DNA from: a phage
Direction: 5' to 3' (one strand)
Length of the DNA stretch: 64,000 nt
Assembly (NCBI GenBank): GCA_024683775.1
Contig: GCA_024683775.1_4106.1
Part shown: in pieces, positions 21,333 to 52,832 of the stretch
Layout: every line of letters begins with the position of its first letter
Numbering within the stretch: the stretch's first letter is position 1
Translations under genes and position numbers: made by a program
Notes under the pieces: model-generated
Databases searched by the model: none
What the model was told of the DNA's origin: nothing
What the model saw: the letters and a program-made list of their open reading frames with translations, nothing else

Positions 21333-21605
21333 ATGCATTTTGAAAAATTCAATACAAATCGTAACACACGCATTGACGTTCTTTATGAAACACAAGACTC
21401 AATAAGCATTCGTACACGTAGTGGTGATGTATATCATGACTGTACTATTGGTTGGGAACAGGGAAGAACACGTAGTGCAGAATTCGATAACTATCGCTTC
21501 TACCAAGGGGACACCACAATCTGGCCTGAACACGTAGAAGATATTGCGATTGAAGATGAACATAAAGATGAATTTATAAAATTTAATCCCGAAACCGAAT
21601 CATAA
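21333..21605 (+). CDS. hypothetical protein
   Basis: ORF frame 21315-21605. Confidence 0.5.
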   Translation: MHFEKFNTNRNTRIDVLYETQDSISIRTRSGDVYHDCTIGWEQGRTRSAEFDNYRFYQGDTTIWPEHVEDIAIEDEHKDEFIKFNPETES

Positions 21606-21622
21606 ATATTGGAACAGACTAT

Positions 21623-21737
<115 letters not shown>

Positions 21738-24127: not shown

Positions 24128-24258
<131 letters not shown>

Positions 24259-24261
24259 AAT

Positions 24262-24351
24262 CGGTCCCGTTGCCTAGCGTCCGAAGGCAGCCGACTCATA
24301 ATCGGTCACAGTTAATGACACACCACTGGTTAGAATCCAGTCGGGACCACC
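24262..24351 (+). tRNA. tRNA, anticodon CAT (Met or lysidine-Ile), unusually long variable region
   Basis: acceptor ggtcccg/cgggacc, anticodon arm gccga-ctCATaa-tcggt, T-arm actgg-TTAGAAT-ccagt, CCA. Confidence 0.5.
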
Positions 24352-24354
24352 AAT

Positions 24355-24428
24355 TAGACTCTGTAGTTCAGTTGGTAGAACGCTTCACTCATAATGAAGA
24401 AGTCGCTGGTTCAATCCCAGTACTGACC
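24355..24428 (+). tRNA. tRNA-like, anticodon CAT; acceptor stem does not pair (possible pseudo-tRNA)
   Basis: canonical D-arm ta-gttc-agttggta-gaac, anticodon arm cttca-ctCATaa-tgaag, T-arm gctgg-TTCAATC-ccagt; 5' gactctg versus 3' actgacc are non-complementary. Confidence 0.35.
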
Positions 24429-24438
24429 ACAAAAAAAA

Positions 24439-26136
<1,698 letters not shown>

Positions 26137-26493: not shown

Positions 26494-26575
<82 letters not shown>

Positions 26576-26584
26576 TAAAACAAA

Positions 26585-26668
26585 TGGTAGTTAGCATATC
26601 GGCCTTATGCAACGGACTGTTAATCCGTGTCAGAAATGACAAGACTGGTTCGACTCCAGTACTACCAG
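26585..26668 (+). tRNA. tRNA-Asn (anticodon GTT), extended variable region
   Basis: acceptor tggtagt/actacca, D-arm gcat...atgc, anticodon arm acgga-ctGTTaa-tccgt, T-arm actgg-TTCGACT-ccagt. Confidence 0.55.
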
Positions 26669-26733
26669 CAAAACAATCATGAACCTCGGAACAATAAATA
26701 ATATCATACAGGATATTATGAGGTCTAAGGTTC

Positions 26734-27276
26734 ATGGGACGAAAACAATCAGAAGAAACACGTAAAAAAATAGCTGAATCATTAAAGGCTAAAAGTTCTA
26801 AATTACCAGAGAATGAAATAATTCAAAAATATTTAAATGGTATGCCAATTTACGGTTTAGCCAAAGAATATAAGTGTAATAGATCAAGAATAAATGATAT
26901 CGTTGAATCACATGGTGTTAAACGACCAAAATCAACCAATGAAATGCGATTTTGTGAAATACACAATAAGAATTATGAATTAAATTCACAAGGTAAATGG
27001 AAATGTTTAAAATGTGACAGTCAACGTGTTTCTGATAGACGTAGAAAATTAAAAATACTAGCCGTTGAATACAAAGGCGGTTGTTGTGAAAAGTGTGGAT
27101 ATGATAAATGCATTGCCGCATTAGAATTCCATCATGTTGATCCTTCACAGAAAGATTATTCAATTAGTCAAGAAGGTGCAACTCGTTCTTTTGAAAAAAT
27201 TAAAATAGAACTGGATAAATGTATTATGGTTTGTGCAAATTGTCATCGTGAGATTCATGATGATGAACGACAATAA
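26734..27276 (+). CDS. HNH homing endonuclease with NUMOD3-like N-terminus
   Basis: 180 aa; KQSEETRKKIAESL; CEKCGY...HHVDP...CANCHREIH zinc-finger HNH. Confidence 0.8.
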   Translation: MGRKQSEETRKKIAESLKAKSSKLPENEIIQKYLNGMPIYGLAKEYKCNRSRINDIVESHGVKRPKSTNEMRFCEIHNKNYELNSQGKWKCLKCDSQRVSDRRRKLKILAVEYKGGCCEKCGYDKCIAALEFHHVDPSQKDYSISQEGATRSFEKIKIELDKCIMVCANCHREIHDDERQ

Positions 27277-28681: not shown

Positions 28682-28723
<42 letters not shown>

Positions 28724-28774: not shown

Positions 28775-28852
<78 letters not shown>

Positions 28853-33353: not shown

Positions 33354-34169
33354 ATGAGCAACATTTTCTTCAAAACCATTTCCTTCAAAAAAGAATCTTA
33401 CTCTTACGCTTATGTAGATGGTAAAGTACTCAATATCGTTCTAGATGGTGTTGATGTACCTGTTCAATTTACCAGTCATCAAGAAGCGATTGAGGGTGCT
33501 CAAGAGCTTAACAGCTTACTAAATGGTATTGAGAAGAAACCTGAAGTTAAATCTGACCTTGATTTATTGGTTGACAAAATTAAAAGTGGTGAACTATTAT
33601 CAATTCTAGACCAGTGTAATGAAAAATTACGTGGTGTTGTTGGTGATGTACGTACTACAGTTCAAGATCGTCTACTTGAGCAAGCATTCAAAGAAGTTAC
33701 TAAGAAAACTGAAGAACGTGTTGAAGGTATGATTAAAAACATTGATGACGTTCTCACTCATATGTTCACCAAGCCATACGAATCAAGTACTGATTCTGAA
33801 GAGAAACAAGAAGAACCAGTAGAACGCACCAAGCCATCTATTGTTACTAAAGTTAAACATAGTTTTGGTTCACTGGATGATGTATTTGGATTTACAAATG
33901 TACGTGTTAGTACTGATGAAAAGCCAGAAGTTGATGAAATGCTAATTGGTGACATGACAACTGGACAACTCAAAAAAGAGATTGATACCTTTGTTAATGA
34001 ACTAATTAGTTCTGAACGTGCTGAAAATATGTTTAGCAGTATTTCAGCAAACTTCGGCAAAGAAGCAACTGAGCAAGCAGTACAGGCATTCAAAGATTTG
34101 ATTTACACTGTTGCAATTGCTAATCCAGAACAAACACTGGAAGAAGTTCTACGTAAAAACTTCAAATAA
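33354..34169 (+). CDS. hypothetical acidic protein
   Basis: 271 aa; SD aaggag. Confidence 0.6.
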   Translation: MSNIFFKTISFKKESYSYAYVDGKVLNIVLDGVDVPVQFTSHQEAIEGAQELNSLLNGIEKKPEVKSDLDLLVDKIKSGELLSILDQCNEKLRGVVGDVRTTVQDRLLEQAFKEVTKKTEERVEGMIKNIDDVLTHMFTKPYESSTDSEEKQEEPVERTKPSIVTKVKHSFGSLDDVFGFTNVRVSTDEKPEVDEMLIGDMTTGQLKKEIDTFVNELISSERAENMFSSISANFGKEATEQAVQAFKDLIYTVAIANPEQTLEEVLRKNFK

Positions 34170-34184
34170 GATATAGATAAAAGA

Positions 34185-34212
34185 AAAGCCACTACAATGT
34201 AGTGGCTTTTTT
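34185..34212. terminator. bidirectional rho-independent terminator between convergent genes
   Basis: agccactaca-atg-tagtggct hairpin with an A-run upstream and a T-run downstream. Confidence 0.6.
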
Positions 34213-34213
34213 G

Positions 34214-35371
34214 TTATGCGTTATAACCAACAATGACTACAGTACAGCCAAATGGTTCAACAACTTTTAATACAACATTATCATCTGCATCGAGTTCAAC
34301 TTCACTTAGAACAACATGATTGTCTTCAGCATAGACTTGAACTTGTGGGAGGATTTTACCATGTTCACTGGCAGGAATGGACAGTGTGTACATAGAATCA
34401 CCATCATCTACCCAATCACTATCGGTATACGTGTTGTGATATGGAGTGGTGTGTAAGGTTTTACCAATAATACTCAATGAGATTGGAGCATCATCAGTTT
34501 GGTACACAGTAATATTACCGCTAGGATCTACAATGAGGTCTACTCCAATTTGGAATAAATCACCACTGTATGCTTGTAGAGCAAGATACTCACCACGCTC
34601 ATGCACAGTAGCTGGTACAGTTGCCATGTACATACCATCGGACGTGTACTCAAACTGAGATAGAAGTACTGAAGTAACGAAGTCAATATCTTCGCCGCTT
34701 TCTAGTATATCAAATTCAATAGTTTTGGTATTATATATGTCAGAAGTGAGTATGATGGTTCCTTTACCGGATTGAGTAATTGGATCAACTGGAATACTAA
34801 AAACATCATCAATTATTTCAGTTGTGAAGTACTCGGTTCCGTCAGGAAGTATAACGGTAATACGCATTCCAGTTGTATCAATGGCTGAACCTGCGTTGAA
34901 TAGGCGACCACCTACCAAATCATCACCTACGAACGTTGGGAACATAAGGATGTTGTCTATATCTCTATCTATAATCCCGCATTCAGGGGTGTACATATTA
35001 TATAGTGTTTGTGAACTACCTAGAATTGTTTTGTGCAAAAGAAACTTATAAACAAACCCAGTAGGATCTGATTCAAGTTTAGCATCTGAGTATCCTCTTA
35101 CGAAAAAAGAGTTCTTTCTTATTTCACTTAGGATTTGGTCATTAGTTTTGTTGTAGTTTAATTGATATCCTTGTATATCCTTTGTTGTAATTTGTACTTT
35201 ACGATAAATTACATTACTTACAGGATCAAGTAAATCATATAATCTATGGCTTCTCTGACGATAGATTCGAACATTTTTGAGTTTAGTCCCATCGTTGAGA
35301 ATTGCACCATCGACTACATATCCACATTCACCGAACTTATATTGTCCAGCAGCAGCAATCGATCTTGACAT
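34214..35371 (-). CDS. hypothetical protein on the minus strand (possibly structural)
   Basis: 385 aa; ATG at 35371 preceded on the minus strand by SD ggaggg; convergent with 33354-34169. Confidence 0.6.
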   Translation of the reverse strand: MSRSIAAAGQYKFGECGYVVDGAILNDGTKLKNVRIYRQRSHRLYDLLDPVSNVIYRKVQITTKDIQGYQLNYNKTNDQILSEIRKNSFFVRGYSDAKLESDPTGFVYKFLLHKTILGSSQTLYNMYTPECGIIDRDIDNILMFPTFVGDDLVGGRLFNAGSAIDTTGMRITVILPDGTEYFTTEIIDDVFSIPVDPITQSGKGTIILTSDIYNTKTIEFDILESGEDIDFVTSVLLSQFEYTSDGMYMATVPATVHERGEYLALQAYSGDLFQIGVDLIVDPSGNITVYQTDDAPISLSIIGKTLHTTPYHNTYTDSDWVDDGDSMYTLSIPASEHGKILPQVQVYAEDNHVVLSEVELDADDNVVLKVVEPFGCTVVIVGYNA

Positions 35372-35487
35372 TCATCCCTCCATTGGTATAATTATTATAA
35401 CGTATTTATTCTAGATAGGTAAAAAAGCACCTTGACTGAGTTGTGTTTTTGACGTATACTTAAATGGAATATCAATAAGGGGATTTT

Positions 35488-36072
35488 ATGAGTGTTGTAG
35501 AAAAACGTTTAGTACTGAAAAATGGTAAAATGACTGTTAAGCTATACAAAGATGAAGCTGATTCTTTTATGGCTAAAGCAATTGAGAAATCCGAACGATA
35601 TAAAATTCTTGCACCTGCAAGTAAATCGCCGTATGGGTTTAATCACGCTCACAGTCATTTTGTTGGTATGGTATGTGAACATGCTTCATTTGTACTTTTT
35701 AATGAAATTGAAAACTATTCAGGTATTGCACTTAACATCGATCCAGCGTTCCAAAGTGATGGACGTGATGGGGAATGTGATATCAAAGTAAACAACTTAA
35801 GAATTGAAGTGAAAGGTATCAAGTACAAATCGTGGACCGACTTTGGACCATGTGTTAGTACTCGACAGTTAAAAAATATACAGAAAAAAGCTGACGTTAT
35901 TCTGTGGGTATTGTATAATGAGAAAAAGCAAGAATTCACATTTGAGGGATTCAACTATGTAAAAGACATTAGTTCGATTCCAGTTGTGCTAACAGGTGTA
36001 CCAGGGCGACCAATGATTGAAAATCACCCAGTACTGAGTATTATTAAACCACTTCAGGAGTTACCATTATGA
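35488..36072 (+). CDS. hypothetical protein; possible PD-(D/E)xK-like nuclease
   Basis: 194 aa; segment GRDGECDIKVNNLRIEVKG fits D...E-x-K spacing; weak. Confidence 0.5.
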   Translation: MSVVEKRLVLKNGKMTVKLYKDEADSFMAKAIEKSERYKILAPASKSPYGFNHAHSHFVGMVCEHASFVLFNEIENYSGIALNIDPAFQSDGRDGECDIKVNNLRIEVKGIKYKSWTDFGPCVSTRQLKNIQKKADVILWVLYNEKKQEFTFEGFNYVKDISSIPVVLTGVPGRPMIENHPVLSIIKPLQELPL

Positions 36073-52448: not shown

Positions 52449-52832
52449 ATGGTTGATAAATGGAATAAGAAAGATCCATCGCATGATGTGGATATTTCTG
52501 GAATTGATAATGCACATAAGCATAAGTATCTTGATTCACTAGGTCTACTAAAGCCTGACCAAAGTCTTGCACATGATCGTCCTTCACGTGAAAAAGCTTT
52601 CAGTCTAGAATCACTAGGCCATGAATTGAATCGTGTATTTGAAGATCATCCAATTTATGTACGTGATATCATTGAGAAACTTAAAGTGACTCCTAAAGAG
52701 CACTTCAAGGCAACAGTACACGCAGCATTCCGTGCACTACATGAAGCACTAAAGAAAACTCATAACCTTCGCAAGATTCATGATGACATCGTGAACTCTA
52801 TTGAAGGCGAAAAACATAAGTTTAAAAAATAA
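52449..52832 (+). CDS. hypothetical basic protein; shares a YLDSLGLL-type motif with 54195-55688
   Basis: 127 aa; SD aaggag. Confidence 0.55.
   Translation: MVDKWNKKDPSHDVDISGIDNAHKHKYLDSLGLLKPDQSLAHDRPSREKAFSLESLGHELNRVFEDHPIYVRDIIEKLKVTPKEHFKATVHAAFRALHEALKKTHNLRKIHDDIVNSIEGEKHKFKK

Follow-up and report, generated by a model that had tools for sequence, protein, structure and literature searches.

An inverted gene in the early region of an Asteriusvirus jumbo phage encodes a candidate late virion surface decoration protein with immunoglobulin-like domains

Several phages carry immunoglobulin (Ig)-like domains on their heads. T4 Hoc, T5 pb10, Bas63 Hex-Dec and Sf14 gp20 are all located at the centre of the capsid hexamers. 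Ig-displaying decoration proteins of this type (Hoc, pb10, Hex-Dec) are thought to shape phage persistence, for example by mucus adherence, and they are used as display scaffolds; for Hoc, a part in adhesion to glycans or mucus is assumed. Bas63 has two decoration proteins; the gene of one lies more than 10 kb away from the structural module, and most Felixounavirus genomes list both wrongly as tail proteins. For phAPEC6 and 121Q, which with PBECO4 belong to the Asteriusvirus jumbo myophages (350-385 kb), a fibre anchored at each hexamer centre was described, and the authors saw no similarity to known decoration proteins. Heads of the 121Q type (T=28) bear fibres for which no gene has been named. 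Here we analyzed a minus-strand gene at 34214-35371 of a 64,000-nucleotide (nt) stretch of phage DNA (GenBank assembly GCA_024683775.1, contig GCA_024683775.1_4106.1; hereafter the window). With moderate confidence, we consider it best explained as a late gene, from an Asteriusvirus jumbo phage of E. coli, whose product decorates the virion surface.

The product shares its plan with Bas63 Hex-Dec and Sf14 gp20 of the Ounavirinae, namely a putative N-terminal anchor of ~120 amino acids (aa) followed by Ig-like domains in variable number, and in both cases a conserved anchor part is combined with a variable Ig part. However, sequence and fold comparison revealed no homologous capsid-binding fold. 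The product also resembles T4 Hoc in having three Ig-like domains in a row, one small further domain and a mass of ~40 kDa, whereas the binding domain of Hoc is C-terminal and unrelated, without sequence or fold match to the product. T5 pb10 carries just one Ig-like domain, and a comparison with its anchor detected no similarity. By analogy the product may work like Hoc and Hex-Dec; its sequence places it in the 121Q gp155-like orthologue group and not in the Hoc or Hex-Dec families. The proteins 121Q gp155, phAPEC6 gp077, CBB gp483 and their GAP32 counterpart are direct orthologues (41-76% identity over the full length) that showed no difference in kind, and in 121Q, phAPEC6 and CBB the gene has the same inverted position beside the gene of a second virion protein. 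Two further candidate links were rejected. RaK2_00496, annotated as 'similar to phiEa21-4 gp38', was considered as a sequence link to the Felixounavirus Hex-Dec and gained no support from an anchor profile search, and the Hoc-like protein of PMBT63 is a true T4 Hoc homologue unrelated to the module family described below. Relatives of the gene are already annotated as virion proteins, and the finding is not unexpected for specialists. New are the domain dissection, an anchor module that appears specific to jumbo phages and has no solved relative, a candidate for the head fibre, and an interleaved layout of early and late promoters.

Gene, domain architecture and virion association

A sequence-only reading of the window had described an open reading frame (ORF) of 385 aa at this place with a strong minus-strand Shine-Dalgarno sequence. 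The ORF list, the translation and the sequence agree with that description, with GGAGGG at 35381-35376. The gene converges on 33354-34169, as had been noted: the stop codons at 34167-34169 (plus strand) and 34216-34214 (minus strand) face each other across a gap of 44 nt. In the PHROGs database, the product matched phrog_10468 'virion structural protein' over positions 1-384 of the 384 profile positions (E 4.6e-157). Its orthologues are 41-99% identical at 99-100% coverage and are labelled in databases as Ig-domain virion structural proteins (for 121Q gp155, 'virion structural protein; Ig-domain'). The GAP32 orthologue, a 'virion structural protein', is gp475 according to a note in a CBB record. 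Over 3.5 kb around the gene, vB_Ec-M-J is 99.7% identical to the window and the 121Q/PBECO4/phAPEC6 group ~78%, and the product was placed in the vB_Ec-M-J/fEgEco12 subgroup (99% identity). The fEgEco12 genome paper holds no data on the orthologue.

The gene was found in the same place and orientation in all 35 of the 35 matching related genomes, where the matches listed are single collinear pieces. Together with the ORF, its ribosome site and the hairpin described below are kept in about 35 Asteriusvirus genomes (121Q/phAPEC6 group). By annotation it is inverted relative to its neighbours in vB_Ec-M-J (EcMJ_493), 121Q (gp155), fEgEco12 (g507) and phAPEC6 (gp077), and the orthologue gp483 of CBB (Mimasvirus), with ~41% protein identity, is inverted as well. 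Because the inverted gene is shared by 35 independent related genomes and by the distant CBB, an orientation artefact of assembly, which had been raised as a possible refutation, is ruled out, and 34214-35371 is a genuine gene. Horizontal acquisition had also been suggested. The conserved place and orientation in these genomes and CBB, the presence of an orthologue in GAP32, and an unremarkable G+C content (0.36-0.39 in the gene, 0.33-0.36 in the flanks) argue against a recent acquisition, which is not supported for this gene. The only free-standing minus-strand ORFs of at least 100 aa in the window are 34214-35371 and 24439-26136. The sequence-only reading had joined the two into one inverted island; lying 8 kb apart, they appear instead to be two separately insulated late genes.

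No motif had been recognized in the product. Searches of Pfam and NCBIfam with the protein likewise gave no significant match, and searches of PDB sequences with the protein and two profiles returned nothing significant, but the product was already represented in databases as an Ig-domain virion structural protein. The remote homology search and fold prediction that had been proposed as a check thus gave no match in Pfam and PDB, a match to phrog_10468 and an AlphaFold2 model. The full-length AlphaFold2 model, built with 14 orthologues, had a predicted local distance difference test (pLDDT) score of 82 and comprised an N-terminal module (residues ~17-126) and three Ig-like beta-sandwiches. Modelled alone with 57 sequences, the N-terminal module reached a pLDDT of 86.6 and a predicted template modelling (pTM) score of 0.81. 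Residues 1-15 were predicted with low confidence and possibly form an arm in the model. Conservation was 51-83% in the N-terminal module versus 28-76% in the Ig domains. Cys15 and Cys130 (codons 35327-35329 and 34982-34984) are invariant in 14 of 14 orthologues but not in the wider module family; a disulfide between them might link the N-terminal arm with the end of this domain.

The N-terminal module defines a larger family. An exhaustive profile search yielded 171 clusters, about 75 of which share only the first ~120 residues, nearly always from their own residue 1. Proteins headed by the module are 102-1859 aa long. In many of them Big_2 or other Ig-like arrays follow, and several family members are nothing but the module. 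The cultured phages in which the module was found are all RaK2-like jumbo phages (70-71 genomes, 1-4 copies per genome). A search of IMG/VR with one distant member returned one 109-kb contig with two tandem family genes and one short, weak partial match. The module profile gave no match when compared with all PDB sequences.

Virion proteomics had been named as a further check, and published mass spectrometry answers it for a close relative. In purified phAPEC6 virions, the 76%-identical orthologue gp077 was detected by electrospray ionization tandem mass spectrometry (ESI-MS/MS) with 10 unique peptides and 37.8% coverage (PMC7247149). The same ESI-MS/MS data set contains gp078c, the orthologue of the convergent neighbour, and gp347, a 14.1-kDa protein detected with 8 peptides and 75.2% coverage (PMC7247149). 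The gp347 gene was located and translated. It encodes 125 aa that correspond to the N-terminal module alone and are 33% identical to residues 3-125 of the product (E 1e-14). Because gp347 enters virions as a bare module, the N-terminal module is probably a virion anchor. Taken together with the promoter data below, we judge it likely, with good confidence, that 34214-35371 encodes a virion surface protein that is made late and has an anchor at its N terminus and an Ig-like display part.

The locus of gp347 was also compared among related phages. It adjoins dCMP deaminase and ClpP genes, and it is inverted in 121Q, phage A4, RaK2 and the IMG/VR contig as well. Its coordinates are 8870-9375 of L007 (121Q gp472/gp471), 2168-5375 of L008 (phage A4), 5020-7923 of L010 (IMG/VR contig) and 4001-4639 of L006 (RaK2_00496). 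Gene turnover is evident at the locus, where fragments, single copies and tandem genes occur: 121Q gp472 is a 43-aa fragment of the module, and the IMG/VR contig has tandem genes of 306 and 640 aa. In the genome of phage A4 four places match, and two or more of these belong to this locus. The subgroup to which the window belongs apparently lacks it.

Late promoter, early promoters and shared terminator

In CBB and GAP32, the motif ATAAATA, kin of the T4 late promoter TATAAATA, is reported as the late promoter upstream of structural genes; a gp55-like sigma factor is annotated in CBB, where a counterpart was found neither for T4 gp33 nor for T4 gp45 (PMC5259590). The sequence-only reading had considered late expression and had pointed to about 35372-35487 on the minus strand for a late-type promoter. 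ATAAATA was found there on the coding strand, at 35403-35409, with its first base at -38 relative to the start codon. The motif is depleted in the window (12 copies versus 36.9 ± 6.0 expected). On the minus strand it occurs only twice, once ahead of each minus-strand gene, and the second copy, at 26190-26184, begins 54 nt upstream of the start codon of 24439-26136. By our own estimate, the probability that both minus-strand copies fall within 60 nt upstream of both starts by chance is of the order of 1e-5 to 1e-6. In CBB, gp483 is preceded by the context AATAAATAC-TTATAATAA at the same distance as in the window, despite the low protein identity. In the structural region of phAPEC6 (49 kb), 8 of the 9 copies of ATAAATA lie on the coding strand 23-85 nt, mostly 37-43 nt, ahead of a gene start; the genes preceded in this way include the baseplate and virion genes gp238, gp244, gp245 and gp253. 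The motif and its distance from the start codon in the window match those at structural genes of phAPEC6 and CBB, which carry putative T4-type late promoters as adapted in RaK2-like phages. Compared with the T4 form (TATAAATA, gp55 sigma factor), the RaK2-like form does not need the first T of the octamer (AATAAATA, CATAAATA). In phAPEC6, gp237c is annotated as 'sigma factor for late transcription'; the corresponding gene is located outside the 64-kb window. Together with the detection of phAPEC6 gp077 in virions, the position of the motif makes late expression of 34214-35371 well supported as a prediction.

A sigma-70-like sequence on the minus strand, TTTACC-18-TATAAT at 35423-35394, was considered as the main promoter and rejected. 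Its -35 element is not kept in 121Q, and it is further disfavoured by the lack of any strong sigma-70 promoter on the minus strand of the window. Copies of ATAAATA on the plus strand were also found 39-40 nt before ORFs 26734-27276 and 52449-52832 (at 26694 and 52410), 47 nt before a tRNA-Ser gene at 21649 (at 21602) and 77 nt before a tRNA-Thr gene at 28781 (at 28704). These two ORFs and two tRNA genes may be expressed late inside the early region.

Of the sigma-70 promoters that match at least 11 of the 12 consensus positions, all 39 lie on the plus strand, including 12 perfect matches (12/12). This extreme strand bias gives the entire window the look of an early region served by the host RNA polymerase. 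One of the perfect promoters, at 35365-35392, is interleaved with the start of the inverted gene: its -35 element overlaps codons 1-3, and its spacer spans the Shine-Dalgarno sequence. It is conserved in 121Q and phAPEC6. The block 35360-35411, which contains both this early promoter and the putative late promoter as well as the ribosome site, is identical to 121Q/phAPEC6 at 51 of 52 positions, whereas the surrounding genes are 78% identical.

At the other end of the gene, the sequence-only reading had noted a perfect hairpin with A- and T-runs between the convergent genes. It was observed at 34184-34212, where it occupies the intergenic gap. Its arms are GCCACTAC (34188-34195) and GTAGTGGC (34199-34206) with the loop AAT. 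Including the A/T runs, a perfect 12-bp palindrome, AAAAGCCACTAC-AAT-GTAGTGGCTTTT, extends over 34184-34210, and the T run goes on to 34212. The stem is followed by U6 on the plus strand and by UUUUCUUUU on the minus strand. Folding gave -20.9 kcal/mol (z -5.7) for the plus strand and -16.2 kcal/mol (z -5.0) for the minus strand, and on either strand 0 of 200 shuffled sequences were as stable. A terminator scan called the hairpin on the minus strand; on the plus strand the scan counted the U tract into the stem, and the GC stem followed by U6 has the canonical form of a terminator. The hairpin is kept base for base in 121Q and phAPEC6, though the genes are only ~78% identical. Here, the convergent genes are separated by a GC-rich stem that has a U tract on either strand, the features that define a bidirectional terminator, so that the hairpin can, as far as its sequence tells, act as an intrinsic terminator in both directions.

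These elements suggest the following scheme. Early in infection, host sigma-70 polymerase would start near 35399 and transcribe rightwards. Late in infection, polymerase with a presumed gp55-like late sigma factor of the phage would start near 35396 and transcribe leftwards to the hairpin. The hairpin would also stop the convergent plus-strand transcripts and insulate 34214-35371 downstream, and one 45-bp stretch would serve both rightward early and leftward late transcription. The layout would be a compact case of a late gene insulated in an early region, with interleaved promoters on opposite strands and a bidirectional terminator at the far end.

Placement on the virion and alternative explanations

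In the proposed arrangement, the N-terminal module would dock on the virion and the Ig-like string would point outwards as a fibre whose length we estimate at ~15 nm from the 18 nm of the Hoc fibre. Because the combination of an anchor and Ig-like domains is the plan of the Hex-Dec type, and because the hexamers of phAPEC6 and 121Q bear a fibre, we propose the centre of the capsid hexamers as its site, in resemblance to T4 Hoc, T5 pb10 and Bas63 Hex-Dec. This placement is made by analogy and is tentative. The fibre would provide weak multivalent adhesion to glycans of the host surface or of mucus and would not be the primary receptor binder. The hexamer sites are perhaps shared with the module-only paralogue.

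Several points weigh against this interpretation, either as to location or as to timing. Neither by sequence nor by fold did the module resemble any solved capsid-binding domain, and its placement on the capsid draws on architectural analogy and a density at 10 Å. In that density, the structure at the hexamer centre looked dimeric or trimeric, whereas proteins of the Hoc type are monomers. phAPEC6 also bears tail decorations and hairs that are not linked to a protein. The mass spectrometry concerns virion association only and comes from a 76%-identical orthologue in another phage. As for timing, late expression is deduced from a 7-nt motif, the late sigma factor gene was seen in phAPEC6 alone and is not part of the window, and for the paralogue gp347 the nearest TATAAATA is 195 nt upstream and not at about -40.

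The unassigned tail structures lead to the most serious alternative, which we regard as unlikely but well worth weighing: the module could dock on the sheath, the collar or the baseplate, for instance forming the base of the 'hairs' or the decoration that the phAPEC6 tail shows at two levels, and the Ig-like domains would aid adsorption from the tail. Both phAPEC6 and CBB carry tail hairs and a tail decoration protein without a linked gene, and homologues are labelled 'major tail protein' (K64-1) or 'possible surface protein responsible for cell interaction' (fHe-Yen9-04). However, tail protein labels are the type of misannotation documented for the Ig-bearing decoration proteins of Felixounavirus. 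The CBB hairs measure ~119 nm compared with an estimated ~15 nm for three Ig domains, and GAP32, for which no tail hairs were reported, has an orthologue; the CBB authors argued that GAP32 should lack the hair genes. The 75.2% coverage of gp347 also fits, weakly, a high copy number as for 270 hexamers. A role as primary receptor-binding protein and host-range determinant, essential for infection, is improbable. A surface-exposed, adhesin-like Ig string whose distal domains diverge faster than the anchor would be compatible with it. Nevertheless, no trimerization, beta-helix or knob domains were predicted and the model is a monomeric string; the family has anchor-only members without any binding domain, and separate large tail-fibre proteins are encoded by the phage. 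In addition, O157 hosts are recorded for some members of both the window subgroup and the 121Q subgroup, yet their Ig domains differ by 24-33%. An origin as a moron or accessory gene acquired recently, or as an artefact of assembly or annotation, with no virion role in this phage, is hardly credible. Its orientation opposite to the neighbours and the missing Pfam match would agree with such an origin, but they are outweighed by the conservation in 35 genomes, CBB and GAP32 and the G+C content described above, by the orthologue peptides in virions and by the conserved regulatory block.

If the decoration protein reading is extended to the whole family, the module could represent a hitherto undescribed docking-domain family specific to RaK2-like jumbo phages, a universal plug for the centre of capsid hexamers that accepts interchangeable Ig-like arrays, where the displayed part may be absent altogether or exceed 1,700 aa. 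Paralogues of the gp347 type would compete for the sites and set the fibre density on the T=28 head. We offer this as a speculative possibility, held with somewhat less confidence than the hexamer-centre site itself. If true, it would name the hexamer fibre of 121Q and phAPEC6, for which the present analysis nominates one protein and one 125-aa docking module. The module travels with very different display arrays, and if docking were confirmed, it would be a new attachment tag for display on jumbo phages.

Feature coordinates, neighbouring genes and the second inverted gene

Table 1. Coordinates of the features at and around the inverted gene in the window
Feature	Position	Strand	Remarks
Minus-strand coding sequence	34214-35371	-	385 aa; ATG start at 35371-35369 (ORF list and translation)
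Shine-Dalgarno sequence GGAGGG of the minus-strand gene	35376-35381	-	4 nt ahead of ATG; kept in 121Q and phAPEC6
N-terminal module, residues 1-126 (proposed virion anchor)	34994-35371	-	Beta-rich, one short helix
Ig-like beta-sandwich domain 1, residues 139-224 (predicted)	34700-34957	-	AlphaFold2
Ig-like beta-sandwich domain 2, residues 225-303 (predicted)	34463-34699	-	AlphaFold2
Ig-like beta-sandwich domain 3, residues 304-385 (predicted)	34217-34462	-	Also stand-alone in small proteins
Putative late-promoter motif ATAAATA	35403-35409	-	AATAAATA including 35410; first base 38 nt upstream of ATG
Predicted perfect sigma-70 early promoter TTGACA-16-TGgTATAAT	35365-35392	+	Points rightwards into 35488-36072; promoter scan
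Weaker sigma-70-like promoter TTGACT-17-TATACT	35432-35460	+	Upstream of 35488; -35 kept in 121Q
Putative bidirectional intrinsic terminator	34184-34212	both	8-bp GC-rich stem lengthened by A/T runs
Convergent neighbour gene	33354-34169	+	271 aa; virion protein, phrog_14991, phAPEC6 gp078c
Second inverted gene	24439-26136	-	565 aa; matches tail-fibre and hydrolase PHROGs; ATAAATA at 26190-26184

The convergent neighbour is on the early strand and has no ATAAATA nearby; a sigma-70-like promoter matching 11 of 12 positions was found inside the gene at 33571-33600. On the other side, the first gene downstream of the early promoter, 35488-36072 (plus strand, 194 aa, phrog_16175), is annotated as 'putative endonuclease' in fEgEco12, and its product showed only a weak Pfam match to NOV_C (E 0.066).

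The second inverted gene was tested as a paralogue of 34214-35371 and found to be unrelated. It is flanked by tRNA genes at 24164-24430 and 26494-26669, and it was found in only two related genomes, vB_EcoM_JNE01 (99.7%) and UE-S1 (96.7%); in most relatives its place is taken by an HNH endonuclease or by nothing. Horizontal acquisition, as suggested by the sequence-only reading, fits this gene, which is sporadic among close relatives and looks like a host-range cassette in a tRNA cluster. Its distribution also shows that the phage of the window is a mosaic of JNE01-like and vB_Ec-M-J-like lineages. Within the tRNA cluster, ARAGORN predicted a tRNA-Ser with the unusual anticodon ACT at 24164-24255 (plus strand), which is 80% identical to the tRNA-Ser(gct) of vB_Ec-M-J at the same place.

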